Positions 15,333 through 55,327 of a stretch of DNA of 60,654 nucleotides are shown here, piece after piece (the first letter of the stretch is position 1; each line of letters begins with the position of its first letter). Location of the stretch: the NCBI GenBank assembly GCA_964447465.1, contig CAYUTR010000001.1, forward strand, positions 1 through 60,654, given 5' to 3'. The notes under the pieces were generated by a model. It saw only the letters and a list, made by a program, of their open reading frames with translations, ran no database searches and was not told where the DNA came from. Source of the stretch: an uncultured Chryseobacterium sp. (GTDB lineage: Bacteria > Bacteroidota > Bacteroidia > Palsa-965). The translations under genes and the position numbers were made by a program.

Positions 15333-15407
15333 GGGGGCTTAGCTCAGCTGGTTCAGAGCATTTGCCTTACAAGCAAAGGGTCATAGGTTCGAATCCTATA
15401 GCCCCCA
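15333..15407 (+). tRNA. tRNA-Val (anticodon TAC), complete, element-borne
   Basis: GGGGGCT-TA-GCTC-AGCTGGTTCA-GAGC-A-TTTGC-CTTACAA-GCAAA-GGGTC-ATAGG-TTCGAAT-CCTAT-AGCCCCC-A. The cloverleaf folds perfectly by hand. 75 nt, CCA not encoded. Confidence 0.9.
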
Positions 15408-15412
15408 CAAAA

Positions 15413-16938: not shown

Positions 16939-17514
16939 CTAAAATTGCATTCCCCATGATAGTCCCTTGCTTTTCAAAAATACCTCTACTTCGTCGGCAC
17001 TACCCTTGCCGCAATTCCGAAGTTTCAAAAAGTCTTGTCGAGTAAATGTGACAAGGTGGCCAATCATAAGAACACGCTCATGAGCGCAAATATTTTTTAC
17101 TCTAACGGACAAACTTGTTTCCTGAATTGAAAGAGGAAGCAGCTTACGTATTCTTACTGGTATCCGCTGTTTACGTTCGGCTTTCCGCTCAACAGCCACT
17201 ACTTTTTTTGTAACACTCGCCAACTCATTTCTAGCAGCACTCAATTCTTGAAGAAGATTATTGTGTGAATCTAGTTTTACCCGAATTTCATCCGCTCCAA
17301 TGGTAAATTGTCTGATTGCTCTGTCAAATATTTGCCCAAGACGGTGCGCAGTTAATTGATAGACGCTGTTTAGCTCAGTGAATTTTTTATTATTAACCAA
17401 AACCTCAGTTAGAATTTCATACTCCATCTTGGTCATTAAGTTCCTGCCAAGAAATACTATGTGTGGAAGTATCCTTTCAATGCCCTGCTCCCTCACCGTC
17501 TTTTTGCTGCTCAT
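16939..17514 (-). CDS. DNA-binding protein with RpoA alpha-CTD-like C-terminal domain
   Basis: C-terminal SLSVRVKNICAHERVLMIGHLVTFTRQDFLKLRNCGKGSADEVEVFLKSKGLS matches the helix-hairpin-helix pattern of the RNA polymerase alpha C-terminal domain (LSVRxxNCL...DL...L..IxNFGKKSxxEI). N-terminal HTH-like YEILTEVLVNNKKFTELNSVYQLTAHRLGQIFDRA. Confidence 0.5.
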   Translation of the reverse strand: MSSKKTVREQGIERILPHIVFLGRNLMTKMEYEILTEVLVNNKKFTELNSVYQLTAHRLGQIFDRAIRQFTIGADEIRVKLDSHNNLLQELSAARNELASVTKKVVAVERKAERKQRIPVRIRKLLPLSIQETSLSVRVKNICAHERVLMIGHLVTFTRQDFLKLRNCGKGSADEVEVFLKSKGLSWGMQF

Positions 17515-28299: not shown

Positions 28300-29883
28300 T
28301 TAACTTCTAAATAGTTTTTTGGATTTACTGTTGTGAATCATTCGTTCCTCTTGATCTGGCTCCCGTTCAATTTGAAAGGAAGGTATTTCTTGAGCAAAGT
28401 TTTGGTGAGAGACTTTTGCAAAAAACCATTGATGAAAGATTATCACCTCAGAAGATTTTATTTCCCACTGCAATTCACCAGCTTTTTCGCGGAGCATTTC
28501 AAATGCTGCTTTTTGCTCGTGATAAATAGCTTTAAAATTGTAACCGTTATAGCTCAGACTATGGAGAACGCTGTGAATAAGTTTGGCGCGATGATTTGTC
28601 GTTCCATTTCCATTAGCAAAATATTTTCTTAATGCTTCAATCTTTGCCGTTGCATCGTCAAAGTCGTTCAACTCAATCGCGGTCATAATCTGCAAAATCT
28701 TTATTCCCAAGTTCCAGCCTTCCTTATCGGCTTCAATCGGATTAATTAGGGAAAGGTGCTTTGCCGAATATTGAAAATCCTTCATCATAAAGAACGTTGC
28801 AGCTAGAAAGTAACCGCGTTTCCCTGCTCTGAAATTGCCTGATTGTTCTTCAGAAGGAATGTATTCACAAAGTATATCATGTCCGATTCCATATTTACCA
28901 CCAAAGAACTTAGCATAAAACATTAGTTCTACACATATCTCATAGTTATGACTTCCTTTCTCTGACAAATTCAGAGCCGCAAATGCTTTTTGATAAGCGC
29001 GTTCAAATTGTCCTAAGTAAAGATCATTGTCGGCTAAATTCATCATTACCCCAATGAGTTTGTCGTGTGTCTTGATCGAAGGGTAATTTTGAATCAGCTT
29101 GTAATTGTTCAATAATTCTATTCGGGCCTTTTTGTAATCGCGGGAGCTTTGATAATTCTGCGCCTCAAGTTGTAAGTAATAGTAACCCACAGTTGCCGAG
29201 TCGGTGGTTTTAAAATCGTCTCGCATTGTATCAAGCATATCACGAAGCTCTTTTTGATTGATCTTACCTTCGGAATGAAAGTCACTGGGCGCAGTAATTT
29301 TTGTGAAGTATATCTCTGCTCTTACAACGGCATTTTTCGCAGTATCCGACTGTAAGTATTTTTTTACTAGGAGTGGCAAATTCTTGTCACCTTCGACTAA
29401 AACCCTGGATCGAATTAATATTCGCAAAGCAATAAGTTGCTCCTCGTAGAGTTCGTACTTCCCACATTGCTCTACTACACTCTCAAACATTTTTTTTGCG
29501 AGTTTGATTTTCCCTCTGCGGTGAAGAATTTGCGCTTGCGTGAGCTTCTTTCTGACTTCTATATTTACTTTGACTCTTTCGGGATACATACCCTCGCGAT
29601 CAATGTTTACATCAATGATTAAGGCGTCAAGCACTTTAATCCTGGTTCTGTTCGCTAACTTTTTTAAAGCCGGTTTATTGGGCTTCTTGTAAATAGCCAG
29701 TTCAATCTCATCGACTGATGCGGTACTATTTTCTAATGCTGTCAGAAACCCGAAAAGTTGAAGTCCTTTATTCGTCTCACTCTTCCACTCCAGGACAAAC
29801 GTCTTTAGATAGGTTCTAACAGAAACCTTTTCCTCTGAAGTCAGAATGCTGATAACGTCTTGCAGTGTTTTAATCGCTTCCAT
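28300..29883 (-). CDS. all-helical TPR-like repeat protein (possible sensor/regulator)
   Basis: 527 aa with no signal peptide or TM helix. Repeated ~34-aa helical hairpins (YYYLQLEAQNYQSSRDYKKARIEL, FERAYQKAFAALNL, YFLAATFFMMKDFQYSAKHL). Divergent from the 30801 operon. Confidence 0.45.
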   Translation of the reverse strand: MEAIKTLQDVISILTSEEKVSVRTYLKTFVLEWKSETNKGLQLFGFLTALENSTASVDEIELAIYKKPNKPALKKLANRTRIKVLDALIIDVNIDREGMYPERVKVNIEVRKKLTQAQILHRRGKIKLAKKMFESVVEQCGKYELYEEQLIALRILIRSRVLVEGDKNLPLLVKKYLQSDTAKNAVVRAEIYFTKITAPSDFHSEGKINQKELRDMLDTMRDDFKTTDSATVGYYYLQLEAQNYQSSRDYKKARIELLNNYKLIQNYPSIKTHDKLIGVMMNLADNDLYLGQFERAYQKAFAALNLSEKGSHNYEICVELMFYAKFFGGKYGIGHDILCEYIPSEEQSGNFRAGKRGYFLAATFFMMKDFQYSAKHLSLINPIEADKEGWNLGIKILQIMTAIELNDFDDATAKIEALRKYFANGNGTTNHRAKLIHSVLHSLSYNGYNFKAIYHEQKAAFEMLREKAGELQWEIKSSEVIIFHQWFFAKVSHQNFAQEIPSFQIEREPDQEERMIHNSKSKKLFRS

Positions 29884-30331
29884 TCAGGTGGTATTCAACT
29901 AATTAGAGTTACTGTCCCGATGCCACTTATTTTTCCAAACAAATAGCTGTCCCACTGGTGATTTTTGGATGATAAATAATCTAAAAATCATTCTTATGCC
30001 ACTATTTGATCTTATCTGTGCAATCATTAAAGTCGTCCTATCCATCATTAACTTCGATGATGTAGGTTTCTGAAGGTGTAATTCGGCTTGAATTAAGTAT
30101 CAGTTTATTGATTAGTCTGAATGCCTCTACCATTCGGAAGGGGCATTTATTTATTAATATTTAAATGATACTTATTGAATACCGTCAAAGTAAAAGCACC
30201 ACGGAGCCATTTCAAAATTTTTGTTTTTTGGAAATTTCGGTTTACATATCAGAGGAAATGGCACATAATCAACTGACATTCAATTCAATATGGTTGAAAT
30301 TCACGCAACCTACTTTTGAATGAAGACAACG

Positions 30332-30351
30332 TAGCCGTTTGTAAACGGATA
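30332..30351. promoter_or_regulatory. 20-bp palindromic operator-like site O1
   Basis: TAGCCGTTT-GT-AAACGGATA, located 13 nt downstream of a perfect -7 box TACTTTTG (30311-30318). Confidence 0.5.
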
Positions 30352-30724
30352 GCGTATTTCTAAAGATTTGATAGTAAGCTGTTTATTTATTTAAGCAACT
30401 CGCACACGTTGGAAATGTGGGACAGTAAGAAGCTGTTTTTTGAGGTTGCGTTGTAGCAATAGAATTCCACCACAAACATTGGGGCGTGGGACATTTGCGA
30501 ACCAGGACAGAGGAACCGCGAAGTCCCAACACCAAGTAACACAAAGCCCACGCCTTGACGTGAGCAATTGCGCTTCTTTGGTGTATTGAAATTTCGCGGT
30601 TTTCTGTCCCAAGAAACAGCAGTTGCTGTTTAGATATGTTGTTCCTTTTATTCTCTCGATAGTATCAGTTTGATTCTCAAAAATACGACGTTTAGCTGTT
30701 ATCCTCCAAAGGAATACTGAAGGT

Positions 30725-30754
30725 TATCCGTTTACAAACGTTTACAAACGGATA
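30725..30754. promoter_or_regulatory. operator-like site O2 (same palindrome with a 10-bp internal duplication)
   Basis: TATCCGTTTACAAACG+TTTACAAACGGATA. Removing one TTTACAAACG gives TATCCGTTT-AC-AAACGGATA. Lies 17 nt upstream of the -7-like TACTTTTA (30772-30779) and 46 nt upstream of ATG 30801. Confidence 0.5.
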
Positions 30755-30800
30755 AGATGGGCTTATCATCCTACTTTTACACTTACAGCAATCCAAAACG

Positions 30801-31877
30801 ATGAAGGAATTAATCACAGACATTCATAAGACACTGGAGGATTACCAGGAGGGCACAGGGCACGAGATCACGCCAGAGAGAATTGAGAAGTGGATCAGTC
30901 AATTTGATGAGGACGATCAGGAATTTATACTTCAAGAACTTTCTCCAATTCTAAAGGACCGGTACGTGTCTAAGAAAAGTATCAAGGTGTTTCTTAGAGC
31001 AGTTATTGTGAAGCTCCAAAAGAATTACGAATACAAAACACCGCAGAAGTTTTTGAAGGATACTGTTTTTCTTGATCTCCAGGATACCGGTAAGAGTCAA
31101 ACAGTAATGCTCAAACTCCTCGATGAGATTTTGCAAGCTGAATTTGATCTTAAACTTGAAGATTGCGGTAGCGTGAATCAAAAGTATCACATCTATATGG
31201 ATGATATTCTTTGCACCGGGAATACATTCTTTTATGATATAAAAAAATGGGCCGGCAAAGGTGAAGGTTCAAATGAAGAGAAGGTGCGAAAGGGAGAAAT
31301 TGAATTGATTATTTGTTACGTGTTTATCCACACGACTAATTTTCACAAGGTCAATAAAAGATTTAAAAGAGACATATCATCTGGCTTTGCCTCAAAGTAT
31401 TCTTTTTGGAGGTTGAAGGAAATTGACAATGGCAATTCAACAAGTTCAGCTTACGAAACTTTAATGCCTATTGAAGACGATCAATCTGACGAGGTGGTTG
31501 CTTATCAAGAGCAAATCACCACAGAGGTGGACAAATACACAAAGAAAAGCGATTATGAAGTTGATGATGAATTCTACCGGGCCGGTTCACGACCGAAGGA
31601 AGAAAAGTTCTTTTCCAGTCCTGACAATCGGATACGCTTTGAAAATATACTTTTGAATAAGGGCATAGAGATTCTTTCTAAGGCGAGTAGTCAAAAACCT
31701 AATATCCGTGCGTTGGGCTACGAATTACCTTCACATAAAAATTTTGGATTCGGTACTCTTTGTTTTACGTGGCGCAATGTTCCTAATAATACTCCACTTG
31801 TATTCTGGTATGCAGGTGGTGAATTCTTTCCGTTGTTTGAAAAGCGCAGGGCAATACCTACATTTAGATTTGCATGA
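30801..31877 (+). CDS. phosphoribosyltransferase (PRTase)-like domain protein
   Basis: KYHIYMDDILCTGNTFFYD fits the type I PRTase PRPP-binding loop (hydrophobic strand-DD-hydrophobic-x-TG-x-T). About 130 aa precede it and about 210 aa follow it, neither recognised. Stop overlaps the next start (ATGA). Confidence 0.45.
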   Translation: MKELITDIHKTLEDYQEGTGHEITPERIEKWISQFDEDDQEFILQELSPILKDRYVSKKSIKVFLRAVIVKLQKNYEYKTPQKFLKDTVFLDLQDTGKSQTVMLKLLDEILQAEFDLKLEDCGSVNQKYHIYMDDILCTGNTFFYDIKKWAGKGEGSNEEKVRKGEIELIICYVFIHTTNFHKVNKRFKRDISSGFASKYSFWRLKEIDNGNSTSSAYETLMPIEDDQSDEVVAYQEQITTEVDKYTKKSDYEVDDEFYRAGSRPKEEKFFSSPDNRIRFENILLNKGIEILSKASSQKPNIRALGYELPSHKNFGFGTLCFTWRNVPNNTPLVFWYAGGEFFPLFEKRRAIPTFRFA

Positions 31878-32593
31878 AAGGCCAAACCAACAAGAACGAG
31901 GAGAGAATCTACACCTACTCCTCGTCCTGTACATTTAGAAAGACCAAAGAAAATTTTGGCGGACTATCGAATATGGCAAGTGGCTTTCCGCTTGAGATCA
32001 ATGGCATCCATATTTATTCCTCTGAGGCCTTATATCAAGCGTGTCGATTTCCACACTTGCCTGAAGTACAAAAAAACATACTGGAGCAGAAAAGTCCAAT
32101 GACCGCAAAAATGGTTAGCAAGCCATTTCGGGAAGAATCCCGAAAAGATTGGATGCAGATTAGAATAAAAGTGATGCGATGGTGTTTGAAAGTAAAATTG
32201 GCTCAACACTTTGATTCCTTCGGCAGACTTATCGAAACGACAAACTCAAAGGACATTGTAGAGGAATCATCGAAAGATCCATTTTGGGGAGCTATTCGGA
32301 TTAATGAAAACGAGTTGAAAGGTGTAAATGCTTTAGGGCGCTTGTTGATGGAGCTGAGAAATGACTACAATTCGATTAAGAGATTTGAATTGCTCATCGT
32401 AAATCCTCCAGCGATTCCCAGGTTTAATCTGATGGGAAAAAAAATAAAGCGAATTGATGAAAGAAAGAAATTTCTCAAGGATATGAAACAAAAAATTGGC
32501 TTAGAGAAAAATAAAAATTCAACATCCATAAAAGTGCAAGGTGGGAAGTCTATTCAGGAGCGGGAGAAAAGCTCAGAACTCTTACTCTTTTAG
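31874..32593 (+). CDS. NADAR (YbiA/DUF1768) family protein
   Basis: FGGLSNMASGFPLEINGIHIYSSEALYQACRF, W..IRIKVMRWCLKVKLAQH, IVEESSKDPFWG and GVNALGRLLMELR follow the NADAR consensus blocks in order. K-rich C-terminal tail. Confidence 0.75.
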   Translation: MKGQTNKNEERIYTYSSSCTFRKTKENFGGLSNMASGFPLEINGIHIYSSEALYQACRFPHLPEVQKNILEQKSPMTAKMVSKPFREESRKDWMQIRIKVMRWCLKVKLAQHFDSFGRLIETTNSKDIVEESSKDPFWGAIRINENELKGVNALGRLLMELRNDYNSIKRFELLIVNPPAIPRFNLMGKKIKRIDERKKFLKDMKQKIGLEKNKNSTSIKVQGGKSIQEREKSSELLLF

Positions 32594-32595
32594 AA

Positions 32596-33630
32596 ATGTC
32601 TGAAATTGATTGGAAGAAACTTCTGCTTAAATCAGGTCTGCCATTTGAGTATGAAGTGAAAGAGTGTTTCGTGAAGCAGGGCTGTACTGTGTGGGATGAA
32701 TATTCCTACGTCAAGGAAGATGAAAATAATGTCGAAAAAGAATTTTCTCACGATCAGCAAGCGAATACCTGGATAGGTGGAAATTCTGTTGACTTTCTAA
32801 TAGAGTGTAAATACAAAACCGAACCGACTAAATGGTTTTTTTCTCCTGACCCATACGCATACCAGGACGAACTTACGCGAAATGATTTTTTACATCCCGT
32901 CGATCATTTCATCGATAATAAATTTCCATTCACGGAATCTCCATACGACAAAGTTCAGGATGCACTTGGGCCATTCTGTTTAAAGGGCGTAGAGTTACTC
33001 GGCAACAAGTGCAATGACCTGACGATTTATAAGGCAATCAATCAATTGTCCTACGCATTTGTTCACCACTACATGAACTCGATTGAGAACCAAATGAGTG
33101 ACGGACAATTTGGCGGAGGAAGGTATTTCCAGATTCCTGTTATCATTACTAACGCAGAACTGTATTTAATCAACGAAGGGGTAACGACAAAAGACATTGC
33201 ACAGTCAAAAAGTATTGAAGAAATATCCCACCGTGAGAATTTTTTGATCTTTCACAATAAAATTGGACAACAATTAAGGGCACACAACTACGACAAGGTT
33301 TATGCTTTTTTCAATAACCTTCCCATGACAGATAGGTTCAAGGCGAAAAACAAATCATTCACAGAAGACATTAGTCAGTTTATTAACATCGTGGCAAGCG
33401 TCTTATGTCCACAGGCCATTTTAGTGATGCACCACGATGAAGCTCATCAGAATTACAAAAAGCTGTTTGATTACATCACCTTTTTTATGGTTCAGTCTCC
33501 TGAGTTAAAAAAGCGAGTGAAAGAGGAAATGGAAAAATTGCAAGAGACATTGAAGCAAATGGAGAGTAAGCCACGCAAAAACAAGAAAGAGGGGAAATCC
33601 TCAACTAAAACACCCAAAAAGCAGTCATAA
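32596..33630 (+). CDS. PD-(D/E)xK nuclease-fold protein with long helical C-terminal extension
   Basis: Starts 2 nt after the upstream stop. LPFEYEV ... FSHD ... NSVDFLIECKYK gives the E / D / ExK arrangement of restriction-endonuclease-like folds. Lys-rich tail. Confidence 0.55.
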   Translation: MSEIDWKKLLLKSGLPFEYEVKECFVKQGCTVWDEYSYVKEDENNVEKEFSHDQQANTWIGGNSVDFLIECKYKTEPTKWFFSPDPYAYQDELTRNDFLHPVDHFIDNKFPFTESPYDKVQDALGPFCLKGVELLGNKCNDLTIYKAINQLSYAFVHHYMNSIENQMSDGQFGGGRYFQIPVIITNAELYLINEGVTTKDIAQSKSIEEISHRENFLIFHNKIGQQLRAHNYDKVYAFFNNLPMTDRFKAKNKSFTEDISQFINIVASVLCPQAILVMHHDEAHQNYKKLFDYITFFMVQSPELKKRVKEEMEKLQETLKQMESKPRKNKKEGKSSTKTPKKQS

Positions 33631-33722
33631 TCTGCCAACAATTGTCAACTACACTTTTGCGGGAATTGGCGTAACTTCTTTTTCTTTAGCGTCTTACAAT
33701 GAAAATGACGCGATGTGATGTA

Positions 33723-33749
33723 TGCCACATTCTGCCACAAATTGCCACA
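33723..33749 (+). promoter_or_regulatory. three direct TGCCACA repeats at exact 10-bp phasing
   Basis: TGCCACA at 33723, 33733 and 33743, 45-70 nt upstream of ATG 33794. A -7-like TATCTTTA lies at 33782-33789. Confidence 0.45.
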
Positions 33750-33793
33750 ACCGATCAACAAGAATTCAATCTACTGGATATTATCTTTACAAG

Positions 33794-34594
33794 ATGACTG
33801 TTGACAAAGGAGAAGCTGGCGTTTCGATTATTAAGTCATTGCTCAGTGCTGTGCCTTATGTTGGCACAGCTTTGGACGAAGTGTTTTTTGAATACCGGGG
33901 ACGGATCAAGCAAAAGCGCATTGAAAAATTCATTGAGATTTTTGCAGAACTCGTTGGCAGCATTAAGCAAGAACAGTTTAACCTGGACAGTATTAAATCG
34001 GAAGATTTTAGTGACTTTTTTGAAGCGTTGCTTATTCAGGTATCAAAAACATCATCGGAGAAAAAACTTGAACGCTTCAAGCAACTGCTATTAAAAGAAC
34101 TCATTGATCCGTCACCGGTCGATTATGCAGAACTGTATTTGCAGATTCTTAGCGGCTTGCATGAAAAGCAAATAATAATGCTTTCGGATTATGATGATGT
34201 ACGAGGGTCAGAGTATAATTCCGCTGTGGGAGAAAGAAATATTACCGAAGCGGAAGTAACAAGGATAGAGAAGCAACTTGAAATAGCATACAGGGCAGTG
34301 ACCGATACTACACCGGCGGAAGAGGATCAAAATATCCAAAACCTCTTAGGCTTAAAGCAAGATATGGAGAGACGGTTTAAATGGCTTGACGAAAAAGTTA
34401 GTGATCTGAGCGTTGAGTACGCAAGCGTGGAATATGGAATGGATACTGAAGAAAGAATGTATTTCATTCAGGACTTGTGCAGCAAGGGTTTACTCCGAGA
34501 TATTGGAATGGAATACCCTGGGACAGCTTCCGGGGTTCTTGTCGAAATTACGCAGCTCGGAAGTGATTTGGTTAAGAGAATTCAGGATCAATGA
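33794..34594 (+). CDS. hypothetical protein with C-terminal winged-helix-like segment
   Basis: ORF 33722..34594 trimmed to ATG 33794 (MTVDKGEAGV). Helical N-terminus (SIIKSLLSAVPYVGTALDEVFFEYRGRIKQKRIEKF, faintly Abi-alpha/DUF4393-like). C-terminal YFIQDLCSKGLLRDIG...VEITQLGSDLVKRI is wHTH-like. Confidence 0.4.
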   Translation: MTVDKGEAGVSIIKSLLSAVPYVGTALDEVFFEYRGRIKQKRIEKFIEIFAELVGSIKQEQFNLDSIKSEDFSDFFEALLIQVSKTSSEKKLERFKQLLLKELIDPSPVDYAELYLQILSGLHEKQIIMLSDYDDVRGSEYNSAVGERNITEAEVTRIEKQLEIAYRAVTDTTPAEEDQNIQNLLGLKQDMERRFKWLDEKVSDLSVEYASVEYGMDTEERMYFIQDLCSKGLLRDIGMEYPGTASGVLVEITQLGSDLVKRIQDQ

Positions 34595-34604
34595 ACCGGG
34601 CACA

Positions 34605-34635
34605 AAAAAAACCGCACAGAGGCGGTTTCTTTTGC
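34605..34635. terminator. bidirectional rho-independent terminator between convergent genes
   Basis: AAAAAAAACCGC-ACAGAG-GCGGTTTCTTTT: an A-tract, a 6-bp GC-rich stem, then a T-tract. Confidence 0.65.
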
Positions 34636-34646
34636 TTTGGCGGCAT

Positions 34647-36212
34647 TTATTCTCTCGGATCAGCAAATCGTACCAGTTCGCCAGTATATCCCTTGAATCG
34701 GCCTTTTCCGAATGCAGCTCCAAATTCAGGGAATTCGACAATGTGTGCTGCATCATGCACGTACTCATTCGCTCCCCGGTGCTGCCCATCCTTCGTAGCA
34801 TGAAGGATCGCAAACAAAGTCGTGTCAGGGCCGAGTCGTTTTTGCAAGGCTACCAACTGCTTCGGATTAAGTCCGAGTCGGCTTACGCTGTCCAGAAATA
34901 CAAATTTATAGTCGCGAAGATCGCCTGGATTAGCAGGTAAGTCGTCGTCAACGTACAGGTTTGGATTTGCCGCCTGCGTCTGTTCAAACTTGTCCTGGAA
35001 TGTACCTGAGAGTTCCTCTTCCTTTTGAATGAATAGCACCGGTCCGTGATGAGTTGAAAGGTATCCGGCAAAGTCAACCAGCGTCGTTGTTTTACCGAGT
35101 TTTTCTTTGGAGAAAACAATCGTATGTTTTCCAGGTTCAATATGTCCGAAGACCTTTACCCAAGGCTCGGCGATTGTATAACATGGAAACTTCTGTTTCA
35201 TAAATTCCGTGCTCGGTATCGGCCCTTTGGATTTCCGCTGAACGTTTTCTTCGTCGTGTGAAGCATTCACTTCCTTATCATAGGTTTCAGGGTACTCAAT
35301 GCCGTTCAGTTCCTCCGGTTCCTTTTCGCAACCACAACCGAGAATGCCACTCAGTTCGGCAGGTAAAAGCGGTAATAGAGCTTTTTCATTTTTCTTTTCG
35401 TCGTACTTCTTCAGCACTTTCATGGCTTCGATAATCTGGCTGAAGTACCTGTCATCCTCCGGGATGTCTCCCTTTTCAATTGCGTTAAACATTCCGTTGT
35501 AAAGTCTCCTGACTTTTTCCACCGTGGTAGATTTTTCTGCTTGACCTGCGTATTGTGACAAGAGTTGAACTGAACGCATTTTGTGCTCATCCTGGATTAA
35601 AGCCTCAATAGCTTTTCTTTCGCCGGCAGAAATATGTACCATCGCCATCGCACCTTTCGTTGTGTTGACCAGCTTTACAATGTTGTCGCGCATCTTTTCT
35701 ATATGCGCGGAATATTTGGAAGCCTTGCGCAGAACGCGGGCGTTGATCTGTCTTGCAAGTTTCCTGGCAAAAGATATTACGCGACTCGTTGGAACTTCCT
35801 TCTTTGAAAGATTGAGATACTGACCAAGCAGTACAATATGCGGATCAAGTGTTTCAACCGCCTTGCCAGATTTGTGCTTTGGCAGACTGACAGAACGCCT
35901 AACCACCTGCCGGGACTGAGGTTCTTCGTCCGGAGTTTTTTGCTTTGATGTTACAGGACCGTGTGATTTTGTTTCTGCCTTTTTGGGTGGGGAACTCTTT
36001 TCACTACCCTTTGTCTCCATCATTTCATCGAGAAGGGCAAATTGCTTAACCATCGCCGACCTGATCGTTTCGTTGCGATCATACAGCTTCCAGTTACTTC
36101 CGCTTTCCGTAGCGTTGCGGATGTAATCATGCGCCTTCTGCATCTTGTCTGAAAGGTTCTTAGCACCAATCTCACGGATGCGCTCAAAATAATTTTCTTT
36201 TGATGTTTTCAT
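34647..36212 (-). CDS. protein with C-terminal RadA/Sak4-like RecA-fold ATPase domain
   Basis: Walker A-like FSKEKLGKTT, Walker B YKFVFLDS, then LFAILHATKDGQHRGANEYVHDAAHIVEF...KGRFKGYTGE, which parallels RadA GHVTKEGxIAGPRxLEHMVDxVLxFEG...KNRFG. The ~340-aa N-terminus is unrecognised. Confidence 0.5.
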   Translation of the reverse strand: MKTSKENYFERIREIGAKNLSDKMQKAHDYIRNATESGSNWKLYDRNETIRSAMVKQFALLDEMMETKGSEKSSPPKKAETKSHGPVTSKQKTPDEEPQSRQVVRRSVSLPKHKSGKAVETLDPHIVLLGQYLNLSKKEVPTSRVISFARKLARQINARVLRKASKYSAHIEKMRDNIVKLVNTTKGAMAMVHISAGERKAIEALIQDEHKMRSVQLLSQYAGQAEKSTTVEKVRRLYNGMFNAIEKGDIPEDDRYFSQIIEAMKVLKKYDEKKNEKALLPLLPAELSGILGCGCEKEPEELNGIEYPETYDKEVNASHDEENVQRKSKGPIPSTEFMKQKFPCYTIAEPWVKVFGHIEPGKHTIVFSKEKLGKTTTLVDFAGYLSTHHGPVLFIQKEEELSGTFQDKFEQTQAANPNLYVDDDLPANPGDLRDYKFVFLDSVSRLGLNPKQLVALQKRLGPDTTLFAILHATKDGQHRGANEYVHDAAHIVEFPEFGAAFGKGRFKGYTGELVRFADPRE

Positions 36213-53175: not shown

Positions 53176-53979
53176 ATGATTCCCGAACAATTCAAGGGTA
53201 TCAGGTTCATCGAAATTGCAAGTAGGATTAAGGCAAAAAAGATAGAGAGTACAGAAAAGAAAGGTGTAAAGTATTGTACTGTATATAACAGCCACAATAC
53301 GGTGAGGGACTTCGTGCGAGAGATAAAAGCCCTTTTAATTGCCTTTAAGTATGAGCTTCTAATGTTGCCTTTGATCTACTCAATCGCTGGTAACCGACAG
53401 ACCTTTATACACCATCTCCACGAACACTTCTTCGTGGTCAACGAAAGATTGGAAATCTACCAGTCGTTTCTGAAAGCGGAATTTCCATACGTTTCGCATA
53501 TAACTGCTCTTAATGAGCAGGATATTTTTCCTCGCTTGTTTTCAAAGGAAACACATCCGAGTGTTAAGGACTATGAAAATCACAAAATCCATTATATCCA
53601 TTACTACCACAAGTACATTGTAAATTGTGCTATTGAAGAAATAGAATGCTACTCGCAGAACGAGGGATTTGTTTTTAATGGTCAGGCCTTAAATGGTAAG
53701 GAACGAAAGACGGAAAAATTGCAGCATCATTTCAAGACAGATCTTTCAGTAGACCAATTGGCGTACCTGTTCCAAATTTTCACCGATGTTTTTTGCAAGG
53801 GGGTAAATAAAACGGAACTGGCGAAATTTCTTTCAGCTACGTTCCAAACTACGAAGGCATCAAATCCGAGTTATATCCAAATTAAAAAAGCCTTTTACGA
53901 TGTTGATGATCATACTCAACAAGTCGTAAAAGGCTTGATACTGGAAATGCTGAAACGTGTACAGCAGTCTAAGCGGTGA
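53176..53979 (+). CDS. RteC-like regulatory protein (tentative)
   Basis: First ATG at 53176 (the track start 53170 is GTG). C-terminal LSVDQLAYLFQIFTDVFCKGVNKTELAKFLSATFQT...VVKGLILEMLKRV loosely matches the RteC C-terminal winged helix. Convergent 11-nt overlap with the integrase. Confidence 0.3.
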   Translation: MIPEQFKGIRFIEIASRIKAKKIESTEKKGVKYCTVYNSHNTVRDFVREIKALLIAFKYELLMLPLIYSIAGNRQTFIHHLHEHFFVVNERLEIYQSFLKAEFPYVSHITALNEQDIFPRLFSKETHPSVKDYENHKIHYIHYYHKYIVNCAIEEIECYSQNEGFVFNGQALNGKERKTEKLQHHFKTDLSVDQLAYLFQIFTDVFCKGVNKTELAKFLSATFQTTKASNPSYIQIKKAFYDVDDHTQQVVKGLILEMLKRVQQSKR

Positions 53980-55327
53980 TCCGCATATTTATTTCATCGG
54001 TTTCTTCTTTGTCAAAACTATCTAGGTAAATCTGCGTAGTCGTGATTTTTTCGTGTCCCAATCCTTCGCTGATTAACCCAAGCGATATTCCCATTTTCTT
54101 GGCAATATCAGCCCAAGCGTGTCGCGTCACATAGGACGTTAATTTCTGTGAAATCTTACAATCAGCCTGGATAATACTTAGGTAATCGTTATGAGTACCG
54201 CGGGTTTGTTCAGCGATCCGCGAAATTTCATTTCCATCGTCTTTGAGATCGTTAGGCAGGATAGGAAATACATAATCATCGGCACCTTTATCCTTCATGT
54301 AATGGCCTAAGATGGCAGCGGCTTCCGGAGTCAACTGGATATTGTAGTAACGTCCGTTTTTACTTCGCTTGTATTCAAGCCTTCCATTTGCGATCTGCTT
54401 GCACCGAAGTTTAGCAATGTCAATCCAGTTCATCCCTTTCAGATTGAACATGAAAAGAAAGTAGTTCTTATTGTGCCAAATGGGTGAAAACTCCTCATAC
54501 TGCATCGCCCGAATCGTTTGAATGGCTTCTTTGCGTAATCCTCGTTTAGCCGTTTTCTCCGATGGGATCGAAATGAAATCAAAAGGTGTCCTGAAATCTT
54601 TAGGTAACAGCTTTTCGTCACGTTCCTTCATTGCCTTGCCAATGATTGCGCTAATAGCCCGTAAACGCGCGCCAATGCCATTTTGTTTGTGCTTTAAGAC
54701 ATCTTTCAGATGCAGCATAAATTCGTCCAGTAGAGCAGGGGTTATCTCCGTTATCAGGACGTCTGTGGTCAGATCAAGGTTGTAATTTTCACCCTCACCC
54801 CATTTCCGTTTGGGAATATCACTTTCCGAGCCGCGGAGATAATACAGGAACTGAGTTATCCCGTCCTTATACCACATCGCTGTTTTACGTTTTTGGTGCT
54901 GCCGTTTCAGGTTGATCCATTTTTGAGCGTACTCTCCAAGCATTGCCCCACCGCGTATTTTTTTCTGTTTAGTTGGTTCAATATTCAGTTGCTCTGCTAA
55001 TTGATTTTGTTGCTCGATTAACTCACGGTTAATTTCTGCTTCAAACAGGTCTTTGACCTCAGCGGGTGAAAGAGTCTCCAAGATAGGGTCAGCTTTCAAA
55101 AGGTAGGCTTGGGCCGTTAACCATTTGCGCTGAACTTCGTTGTTATGCCTTTTAAAGTTTGGGTAACCTGTGATCTGCTCCTTTTCTTCATCCCATTGCT
55201 TAGTTGTTAGGCGCAGTCCTAAACCGATATAAACCTGTTGACGTTTGTGGGTTATGCGTATTGTTAGCGGACATTGAGGGTACTTACTAATTCTCCGTTT
55301 GTCGAGGCCGAGAAATAAGGTTGCCAT
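53969..55327 (-). CDS. tyrosine site-specific recombinase / integrase
   Basis: N-terminal Bacteroidota arm-binding type (LTIRITHKRQQVYIGLGLRLTTKQWDEE), SAM-like core, catalytic C-terminus with LTSYVTRHAWADIA, GLGHEKITTTQIYL (R..H..R..Y context). 190 nt from attR. Confidence 0.9.
   Translation of the reverse strand: MATLFLGLDKRRISKYPQCPLTIRITHKRQQVYIGLGLRLTTKQWDEEKEQITGYPNFKRHNNEVQRKWLTAQAYLLKADPILETLSPAEVKDLFEAEINRELIEQQNQLAEQLNIEPTKQKKIRGGAMLGEYAQKWINLKRQHQKRKTAMWYKDGITQFLYYLRGSESDIPKRKWGEGENYNLDLTTDVLITEITPALLDEFMLHLKDVLKHKQNGIGARLRAISAIIGKAMKERDEKLLPKDFRTPFDFISIPSEKTAKRGLRKEAIQTIRAMQYEEFSPIWHNKNYFLFMFNLKGMNWIDIAKLRCKQIANGRLEYKRSKNGRYYNIQLTPEAAAILGHYMKDKGADDYVFPILPNDLKDDGNEISRIAEQTRGTHNDYLSIIQADCKISQKLTSYVTRHAWADIAKKMGISLGLISEGLGHEKITTTQIYLDSFDKEETDEINMRITA

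Follow-up and report, generated by a model that had tools for sequence, protein, structure and literature searches.

The stretch of DNA analysed here (60,654 nt, the whole of positions 1 to 60,654 of contig CAYUTR010000001.1, assembly GCA_964447465.1, from an uncultured Chryseobacterium sp. of the Bacteroidota; henceforth the window) contains a 917-nt gap, 29884-30800, that separates two divergent sets of genes. On its left, on the minus strand, is the gene of a 527-residue protein (28300-29883) that matches no Pfam or NCBIfam family (here called the TPR gene, after the fold predicted for its product). On its right is a plus-strand operon starting at 30801, whose adjacent genes at 30801-31877 and 31874-32593 encode a PRTase-like and a NADAR protein. 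Both score above the NCBIfam equivalog cut-offs of DS-32 (NF053875, 308.7 bits against a cut-off of 250; NF053876, 273.4 bits against 240), and on this sequence evidence the operon is identified as the known DS-32 anti-phage system. The gap is made up of several control modules of an integrative element of Bacteroidota, and almost certainly contains a real structured RNA, encoded on its minus strand, in which two mutually exclusive sets of helices are conserved. The elements of this RNA and of its immediate surroundings are as follows (loci compared with the window are designated by L and a number).

30466-30650, minus strand: structured RNA core of ~185 nt; 135.7 bits (E = 1e-23) with covariance model R1, the only copy in the window
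30678-30685, minus strand: -7 box TATTTTTG, candidate promoter of the RNA; a perfect TAnnTTTG, which 13 of 28 loci have at a constant distance (70-81 nt) from helix B1'
30614-30631, minus strand: 5' hairpin S; 84% paired, with UA, CG and AU pair types
30593-30609, minus strand: 5' arms of helices B1 (30603-30609) and B2 (30593-30600), with partners at 30505-30511 and 30515-30522
30505-30527, minus strand: 3' arms of B1 and B2 and, within 30512-30527, an alternative local hairpin H (GGGAC-UUCGCG-GUUCC)
30529-30584, minus strand: helix C (arms 30529-30536 and 30576-30584), enclosing the apex; C and helix E covary
30546-30554 and 30558-30571, minus strand: apex, consisting of the A' box GCCCACGCC and the T5'/D segment
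30481-30494, minus strand: A box (AUGUCCCACGCCCC on the RNA), perfect complement of A'; the U-tract comes next in most family members
30417-30425, minus strand: second A-box-like copy (CUGUCCCAC on the RNA), kept in L038 and L040

Read along the minus strand, the core begins with hairpin S (30631-30614, with loop D') and continues with the 5' arms of B1, B2, C and E, the D/T5' segment, the A' box GGCGUGGG, the 3' arms of E, C, B2 and B1, the A box CCCACGC, and finally a U-tract (seen in alignments in most members, and degenerate in the window). It was recognised by comparing four lineages, as invariant blocks standing between arms that differ in sequence yet are complementary. An exact three-block pattern scan of metagenomes retrieved 28 loci, 26 of them clear homologs and the other two GC-rich chance matches. 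Model R1 was built from 26 sequences (covariation was counted over 27), and searching with it finds exactly one copy per locus, at 102-179 bits. The family amounts to about 30 loci; in 26 of these, all metagenomic, the core lies beside genes unrelated to DS-32.

At its gathering threshold Rfam 15 identifies only a tRNA-Val in the window. With E values up to 10, the segment 29600-31000 gives chance matches only, all of them outside the core, and for ten homologous loci no match falls on the element with E values up to 1. A consensus-like member has no blastn match in plasmid and phage collections, and the three-block pattern is not found in IMG/VR. (That pattern took the place of a first DNA pattern, GGGGCGTGGG..GCCCACGCC, for which IMG/VR yielded only GC-rich or coding chance matches.) The literature was searched by words only and gave no earlier description of the motif outside Rfam, although an unnamed one is possible. 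On these searches the core belongs to no Rfam 15 family and is a predicted structured RNA family new to the catalogue.

Two sets of helices are conserved. Set 1 (state 1 of the RNA) is an interrupted hairpin of ~32 bp formed by B1, B2, C and E, together with the apical hairpin T and the 5' hairpin S. In T (GCUCACGU-CAAG-GCGUGGGC, minus strand) the invariant GGCGUGGG box pairs with the adjacent CUCACGU. Set 1 is paired in 89.8% of cells, compared with 73.9% in column shuffles and 34-43% when partners are slid; compensatory cells number 187, compared with 61 in shuffles (none of 500 as high). B1 is paired in 97.5% of cells, with compensatory changes in each of its six counted pairs; B2 has a GC/CG swap at 17:10; T is 98.6% paired, with UG to CG changes. 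(What these counts leave out is that MAFFT and the first covariance model align C and E poorly, at 72.6% and 81.9% paired, so that they understate the pairing that is seen by eye and in single-sequence folds.)

Set 2 (state 2) consists of helix A'-A, in which GGCGUGGG pairs with the distal CCCACGC, of helix D'-D, and of the local hairpin H in place of B2; it is paired in 96.1% of cells, compared with 36-52% when partners are slid. A'-A is paired in every one of 27 sequences, with a terminal GU/GC exchange at 17:10, and ends 2 nt short of the U-tract in most members. D' (AGCAA, the loop and 5' half of S) is complementary to D (UUGCU, 30564-30568); this helix is 89% paired, and three of its six pairs are changed on both sides. 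H is 97.8% paired, with one pair G·U in 22 of 27 sequences and two pairs changed on both sides; it excludes B2, whose strand forms the loop of H. The two sets are mutually exclusive, A' pairing with either T5' or A, and both carry covariation. An outer helix G, joining the S region to the 3' half of the A box and the U-tract in minimum-free-energy folds, was discarded: the D' variants AGCGA and AGCAA are compensated in D and not in the A box.

A preliminary description of the gap, made from its letters, had proposed a structured RNA with long-range helices, and these are real: they are conserved with compensatory changes in 27 independent sequences that form a covarying family with a stable fold. 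What it gave as an 8-bp helix (GGCGTGGG, 30483-30490, with CCCACGCC, 30547-30554) corresponds to A-A', and the bulged helix of 17 bp (30505-30522 paired to 30593-30609) to B1 plus B2. Both are evolutionarily conserved, and to ask of two such interleaved helices whether they make a pseudoknot or mutually exclusive folds was to ask the right question. The letters on which that description drew were also checked, and every quoted string was found in its place: these two helices and the hairpin 30614-30631 are exact, as are TACTTTTG at 30311-30318, the palindrome 30332-30351, its duplicated relative 30725-30754, TACTTTTA at 30772-30779 and the minus-strand TATTTTTG at 30678-30685.

The coding strand of the RNA is indicated by its wobble pairs. 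With the conserved helices read on the minus strand, G·U outnumbers A·C by 155:32, and by 97:1 in B1, T, A and H, the four helices that align well. Since a G·U pair on the minus strand is a mismatch on the plus strand, this implies selection on the minus strand, to which the structured core can be assigned with high confidence. The RNA of the window folds at -74.0 kcal/mol (z = -6.6) on the minus strand and at -64.1 kcal/mol (z = -4.3) on the plus strand, the former being more stable by ~10 kcal/mol. That the plus strand is the functional one, as had been supposed, is contradicted by the wobble pattern.

Wobble pairs also bear on whether the element might act as DNA, in the manner of Frpo/ssi: a single-stranded hairpin in a conjugative leading region that serves as a promoter or a priming site and allows early cargo expression in the recipient. 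A long imperfect hairpin of conserved structure and variable sequence, placed in integrative elements upstream of diverse small cargo genes and in one orientation, would suit this role. However, the wobbles are kept on the mRNA-sense strand, and on the template strand they are A·C mismatches (97:1), which argues strongly against it. The hairpin also contains neither a TAnnTTTG nor a -33 motif, a duplex promoter of the ordinary type lies upstream at a fixed distance, and no conjugation genes were identified in the compact loci, which carry integrase and AAA-type genes. A single-stranded DNA function is accordingly very improbable.

The upstream -7 box has near matches to TAnnTTTG as its counterparts in other loci; its letters vary within the consensus (L040, for instance, has TACATTTG). 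The recurrence of this promoter motif at a constant distance suggests that the RNA is transcribed leftward from the -7 box at 30685-30678. What had been described as a perfect minus-strand -7 box pointing toward the TPR gene is accordingly taken to be the RNA's own conserved promoter motif.

Most of the 26 metagenomic loci have a gene on the minus strand whose start lies 48-56 nt beyond the A box, with the promoter motif upstream. These downstream genes are mutually unrelated; among their products are collagen-like lipoproteins, membrane proteins, a Kelch-like protein, and small proteins resembling the C-terminal domain (CTD) of the RNA polymerase alpha subunit. Between the sister loci L065 and L068 the coding sequence alone is swapped, the leader being kept to ~9 nt from the start codon. 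A tyrosine integrase lies within a few kb of the RNA in seven compact loci. Because the gene is found at a fixed 48-56 nt downstream, the promoter is upstream, and the coding sequence is what is exchanged between sister loci, the RNA is probably a cis-regulatory 5' leader.

The alpha-CTD-like proteins are encoded just downstream of the RNA in L048, L053, L057, L059, L062 and L063. Others are encoded at 16939-17514 of the window and at 2112-2693 of L040; only these two have a Pfam match (the L053 example has none). They may be part of the same regulatory system as the RNA.

A free-standing small RNA of ~200-230 nt, ending at the A'-A helix and its U-tract and acting in trans on transcripts or on a protein, would likewise have its own promoter at a fixed distance, a U-tract directly after a GC-rich helix and a very stable rod-like fold; and in the window, L038 and L040 there is no gene closely following. 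Against this stand the same-strand gene at a fixed 48-56 nt in most loci, the swapping of nothing but coding sequence between sister loci, with the leader kept almost to the start codon, and the covariation of the A-box flank with a loop just before the downstream start codon, which is described below. A trans-acting RNA is improbable, though less so than the DNA element just considered.

The loop in question is a GGGxxxx motif that lies 23-33 nt after the A box in compact loci, mostly within the loop of a hairpin that immediately precedes the start codon. The 5' flank of the A box covaries with it: ATAACCC/GGGTTAT, CAGTCCC/GGGACTG, GAAGCCC/GGGCTTT and TTTGCCC/GGGCA are found as partners. In the window, complements of the A-box sequence UGUCCC are found farther away:

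29911-29955, minus strand: pair of GGGACAG boxes, reading TGTCCC on the plus strand and beginning 35 nt apart, that precede the AUG of the TPR gene by ~30 and ~65 nt within its 5' region

These boxes are conserved in L038, L039 and L040, and between them and the RNA lie ~500 nt of other modules (the peptide gene, a terminator, a second promoter and a palindrome, all described below).

In its full form the best explanation, held with barely better than even confidence, is that the RNA is a cis-acting switch in the leader of the downstream gene, operating through competing sets of helices. State 2 would form from local contacts as the RNA is made, and would constitute a terminator or an otherwise closed leader. 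State 1, ~16 kcal/mol more stable, would sequester the GGCGUGGG box in hairpin T and free the A box, whose flank (UGUCCC) would become available to a loop of the GGGACA type, 20-30 nt ahead of the start codon, for pairing; downstream expression would change in consequence. In the window the controlled gene would be the TPR gene, with its two GGGACAG boxes before the AUG. Terminator/antiterminator logic of this form is proposed tentatively, being the more doubtful part of the scheme.

Several observations weigh against it. A terminator stem enclosing ~55 nt is atypical. Forcing A'-A costs ~16 kcal/mol relative to set 1 in a nested energy model, a deficit that implies that set 2 is a kinetic, co-transcriptional fold, or a fold stabilised by a factor, or else that A'-A and D'-D are pseudoknots on the hairpin that replace only T. 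A'-A is also invariant, with no covariation in the helix beyond its terminal GU/GC change. Pairing of the A flank with the GGG motif is modest when all loci are pooled (a mean of 5.9 pairs against 5.4). In the window no same-strand gene lies within 50 nt, the next being 600 nt away, and the U-tract is degenerate (CCCCAAUGUUUG). Finally, the TPR loci L039, L070, L071 and L072 lack the RNA (R1 has no match in any of the four), yet L039 retains the GGGACAG boxes, which implies that these may be protein sites. For the iterated GTGGGACA and TGTCCC copies, to which attention had already been drawn, this leaves a divided outcome: they can be read as functional boxes of the RNA and of a complementary partner near the TPR gene's start codon, but the latter possibly serve a protein instead.

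If all the helices existed at once, the core might be a self-cleaving ribozyme or a fixed compact double pseudoknot, its tails pairing with the hairpin apex, that processes or stabilises the cargo mRNA. Several ribozyme classes are scattered in mobile elements upstream of unrelated genes, as this RNA is; its helices are all conserved together, its junction sequences are invariant, the halves of the hairpin are equal in length, and both linkers are conserved at ~13 nt. But H is incompatible with B2, and T with A'-A, so that the helices cannot all be present together; no Rfam ribozyme model matches the region or the ten homologous loci, and no cleavage site can be named. Such a fixed structure is quite unlikely. 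A broader formulation takes the core to be the first member of a new bistable or catalytic double-pseudoknot class of RNA, a portable head gating cargo genes in Bacteroidota integrative elements. The RNA would respond to a ligand, a protein or a transfer signal, and in the window it would be wired to the TPR protein, an Rgg/SHP-type peptide and the operators. This combined proposal, which is speculative and rather unlikely to be right as a whole, is less probable than the cis-acting leader switch that is preferred here.

Between the RNA and the TPR gene lie the following further features.

29996-30073, plus strand: 25-codon open reading frame (ORF) of a short hydrophobic peptide (MPLFDLICAIIKVVLSIINFDDVGF), which stays open in seven lineages of the TPR gene
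30120-30155, plus strand: intrinsic terminator of the peptide gene; a hairpin and T-run in all lineages, the stem differing in its letters and keeping its pairing
30185-30223, minus strand: conserved box TCAAAGTAAAAGCA + TTTCAAAA, candidate promoter of the TPR gene; nearly invariant in the window, L038, L039, L040 and L072

The gap had been considered devoid of any credible ORF. That is not so: the 25-codon ORF is kept in seven lineages (the window, L038, L039, L040, L070, L071 and L072), with synonymous changes, and is followed by a terminator with a covarying stem. It has 22-25 codons and a C-terminal [NG][FYW]D[DNT][VA][GS][FYL] in the four close lineages, and is looser in the three more distant ones; it always lies ~110 nt from the TPR gene (which specifies 510-536 residues), diverging from it, with the terminator coming next. 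Between the window and L072, synonymous changes are about as numerous as non-synonymous changes over 19 aligned codons. Repeated TGTCCC boxes occupy the ~110-nt shared promoter region in the closest lineages (the window, L038, L039 and L040). The box TCAAAGTAAAAGCA + TTTCAAAA may be the promoter of the TPR gene; if it is, TPR mRNA would cross the peptide gene in antisense.

The 527-residue protein is modelled as a TPR superhelix with a helical N-terminal domain (predicted local distance difference test score, pLDDT, 88), and a sequence search of the PDB gives no match. The layout of TPR and peptide genes recalls Rgg/SHP and arbitrium modules. Membership of the protein in the RRNPP family was examined and is not supported: the fold search gives generic TPR matches only, with RapI at rank 49, and there is no sequence or fold match specific to Rap, NprR, PlcR, PrgX, Rgg or AimR.

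In most lineages the TPR gene lies upstream of genes for very large secreted proteins with PKD domains and a type IX secretion system (T9SS) sorting domain. Such T9SS cargo proteins are encoded downstream of it in the window, L004, L038, L039, L040 and L071; in L072 (6541-7655) a C39-peptidase ABC exporter of the peptide/bacteriocin type takes their place. The position of the gene ahead of secreted T9SS cargo suggests a regulator of that cargo. Where the RNA core would be, L072 has an array (41-438) of 19 tandem copies of a 21-nt unit (AGGGAGCTTAGATTGTCTCGG, 87% matches), reaching to ~40 nt from the contig end.

In relatives of the 527-residue protein that are 60-69% identical to it, the whole upstream region is kept and the gene on the far side differs, being that of a 290-residue protein in L038 and of an alpha-CTD-like protein in L040. 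The region thus travels with the TPR-like gene and not with DS-32.

The part of the gap that is nearer to DS-32, and the segment just beyond the RNA core, hold four more features.

30311-30318, plus strand: -7 box TACTTTTG (P1), directed in antisense into the RNA core; exact in the window, and weakly supported
30332-30351: palindrome O_L (TAGCCGTTT-GT-AAACGGATA), also present at the same relative place, beside P1 and without DS-32, in L040/L041 and L072
30725-30754: palindrome O_R, duplicated internally over 10 bp and reaching into the -33 region of the DS-32 promoter
30772-30779, plus strand: -7-like box TACTTTTA (P2) of the DS-32 operon, read from the sequence; L002 has TACTTTTG at the equivalent place

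The preliminary description made the gap a plus-strand leader or riboswitch of the PRTase/NADAR operon, transcribed from P1, governed by twin operators and shared with the TPR gene. In its favour, P1 matches the -7 consensus perfectly and has O_L after it; O_R, which L002-L007 conserve, is situated at the promoter of the operon; and the plus strand, as its z score shows, folds well too. Linkage speaks against it. R1 has no match in the DS-32 loci L001, L002, L008, L011, L013 and L014; the RNA is therefore absent from a locus with a 72%-identical PRTase as well as from five more distant ones, and it is present in ~26 loci that have no DS-32. In L002 and L003 (PRTase 72% identical) both palindromes are present and flank a 117-residue minus-strand ORF instead of the structured segment. 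L004-L007 (66% identical) have one palindrome and a recognisable copy of that segment. In DS-32 loci whose identity is no higher than 50%, the gap upstream is long but bears no similarity to the region; that a leader is conserved across DS-32 loci was accordingly rejected, the sequence upstream of L001, L008, L011, L013 and L014 showing neither similarity nor a model match. P1 is not conserved as a -7 box (its only counterpart is TACTTTGA in L040, and it is absent in L072), and the G·U pattern is incompatible with selection on the plus strand. A leader belonging to DS-32, or shared with it, can hardly be maintained for an RNA that adjoins unrelated genes in about 30 loci, and is scarcely credible.

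The palindromes are conserved, operator-like sites, as had been thought. Because each is palindromic by itself, the simplest reading makes them separate operator-type sites for a dimeric protein. In L002-L007 the O_R palindrome keeps its place, 47-53 nt ahead of the PRTase ATG; in the window its 10-bp duplication generates two overlapping sites one helical turn apart. The ~370 nt between O_L and O_R do not constitute one unit, as had been supposed, since L004 and L040 keep one palindrome each and in L002 the 117-residue ORF lies between the two. An XRE repressor seemed a candidate for the binder, since L038, L070 and L071 have XRE-type genes close to the region, but with the only XRE sequence recovered, that of L070, tblastn detects no homolog in the window.

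Bacteroidota commonly have invertible promoters, and two inverted repeats with a promoter between them might be inverton recombination sites, with a 373-nt promoter segment flipping between the TPR and DS-32 sides. The two 21-nt arms, separated by 373 nt, show 90% complementarity, and their central dinucleotide is asymmetric (GT on the left, AC on the right), as that function would have it. But the orientation relative to the TPR gene is one and the same in all four carrier lineages (the window, L004, L038 and L040), L004 and L040 have a single palindrome, each site is itself palindromic in the manner of operators, and no invertase gene is adjacent. The contigs L002 and L003, two independent assemblies, break at the same base (position 1 of each) inside a perfect 32-bp version of the duplicated palindrome. 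This shared break is likely to be an artefact of k-mer assembly at a long perfect palindrome and is not taken as evidence of inversion. Of all the alternatives considered, recombination at these sites is the least probable, and the palindromes are regarded here as operators.

The motifs of the gap are more frequent than chance would give. With one mismatch allowed, the palindrome core CCGTTTRYAAACGG occurs four times in the window (0.06 expected), three of them in this region; GTGGGACA occurs three times in 60 kb, two of them here, and TGTCCC eight times in the window, three of them here. TAnnTTTG is about half as frequent in the window as in shuffled sequence (26 compared with 48), which is consistent with selection against spurious promoters; the two in these 917 nt amount to ~5 times the window's own density.

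The surrounding 40 kb includes a tRNA-Val gene (15333-15408), genes for T9SS cargo proteins and for a 2071-residue methylase-helicase, and a tyrosine integrase gene (53969-55327), and looks like a Bacteroidota integrative element. The DS-32 pair is a neighbour of the RNA in this element. A DS-32 pair (PRTase-CE and NADAR) is also found in L011 (GCA_030602585.1, 6001-8036) among archaeal-type genes (TFIIE alpha, ribosomal proteins S17e and L26), which implies that DS-32 also occurs in archaea. In L014 an IS110-family transposase gene (256-1326) is inserted just upstream of the DS-32 operon; the sister contigs L013 and L015 lack the insertion. Weak PADLOC PRTase_III-A matches of the PRTase had suggested a retron. 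This was rejected, as there is no reverse transcriptase (no RVT domain is found in any ORF in 28300-36212) and the PRTase is the DS-32 equivalog.

New RNAs of ~190 nt that combine covariation on this scale with two conserved, competing folds are rarely discovered today, and such large structured RNAs have repeatedly proved to be riboswitches, ribozymes or protein-regulating RNAs. This one may show how mobile elements of Bacteroidota control the accessory genes that are swapped into them, including defence islands such as the adjoining DS-32.

DS-32 itself offers little by way of comparison: it has been described as a two-gene anti-phage system with no mention of an RNA component (DefensePredictor preprint 10.1101/2025.01.08.631726; PMC13092281), and none is linked to it here, where it is only a neighbour. 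With type III-A retrons, whose effector is a PRTase, the locus shares the weak match just mentioned and inverted repeats that flank a structured non-coding segment. It differs in that its operon has no reverse transcriptase and its RNA is on the other strand, unlinked to the PRTase.

Frpo and ssi are single-stranded DNA promoters in the leading regions of plasmids. Like them, the element forms a long imperfect hairpin whose structure is conserved, and it precedes a variety of cargo genes on elements that can be transferred; unlike them, it shows wobble selection in the RNA sense and has its promoter motif upstream, with none inside the hairpin. Cis-acting RNAs that confer processive antitermination provide a different comparison: put of phage HK022 consists of two small stem-loops, and EAR of Bacillus is ~120 nt long. 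Here too a structured RNA lies just downstream of the promoter in a mobile element or operon leader, and would act in cis on what follows, but there is no similarity to put or EAR in sequence or by model, and no sign of polymerase modification.

The TPR and peptide genes are best compared with RRNPP modules (Rgg/SHP, and the arbitrium AimR/AimP/aimX). Common to these are a TPR protein with a divergent gene for a hydrophobic peptide of 22-25 residues, repeated boxes in a shared promoter region, and palindromic operators and a non-coding RNA nearby, all within a mobile element. The differences are that the protein has generic TPR fold matches only, and that the RNA and the TPR/peptide pair occur independently of one another. 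A large survey of RRNPP systems covered Firmicutes genomes only (PMC10075063); for Bacteroidota, a phylum outside that survey, this pairing would be a lead on peptide signalling.

It is the leaders of riboswitches and attenuators that the RNA resembles most in its arrangement. It lies between promoter and start codon, on the strand of the gene, in most of the metagenomic loci; it has an invariant core with covarying helices; its GGCGUGGG box has two alternative partners, and a U-tract follows one of the helices. It differs from these leaders in matching no Rfam family, in preceding unrelated genes with no metabolic theme that would point to a ligand, in a terminator-like helix that encloses ~55 nt, with states ~16 kcal/mol apart in the nested model, and in being confined to mobile elements. 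On this comparison the RNA would be a new family within a known kind, that of structured cis-acting leader RNAs, with an unusual topology and the unusual habit of heading interchangeable cargo genes.

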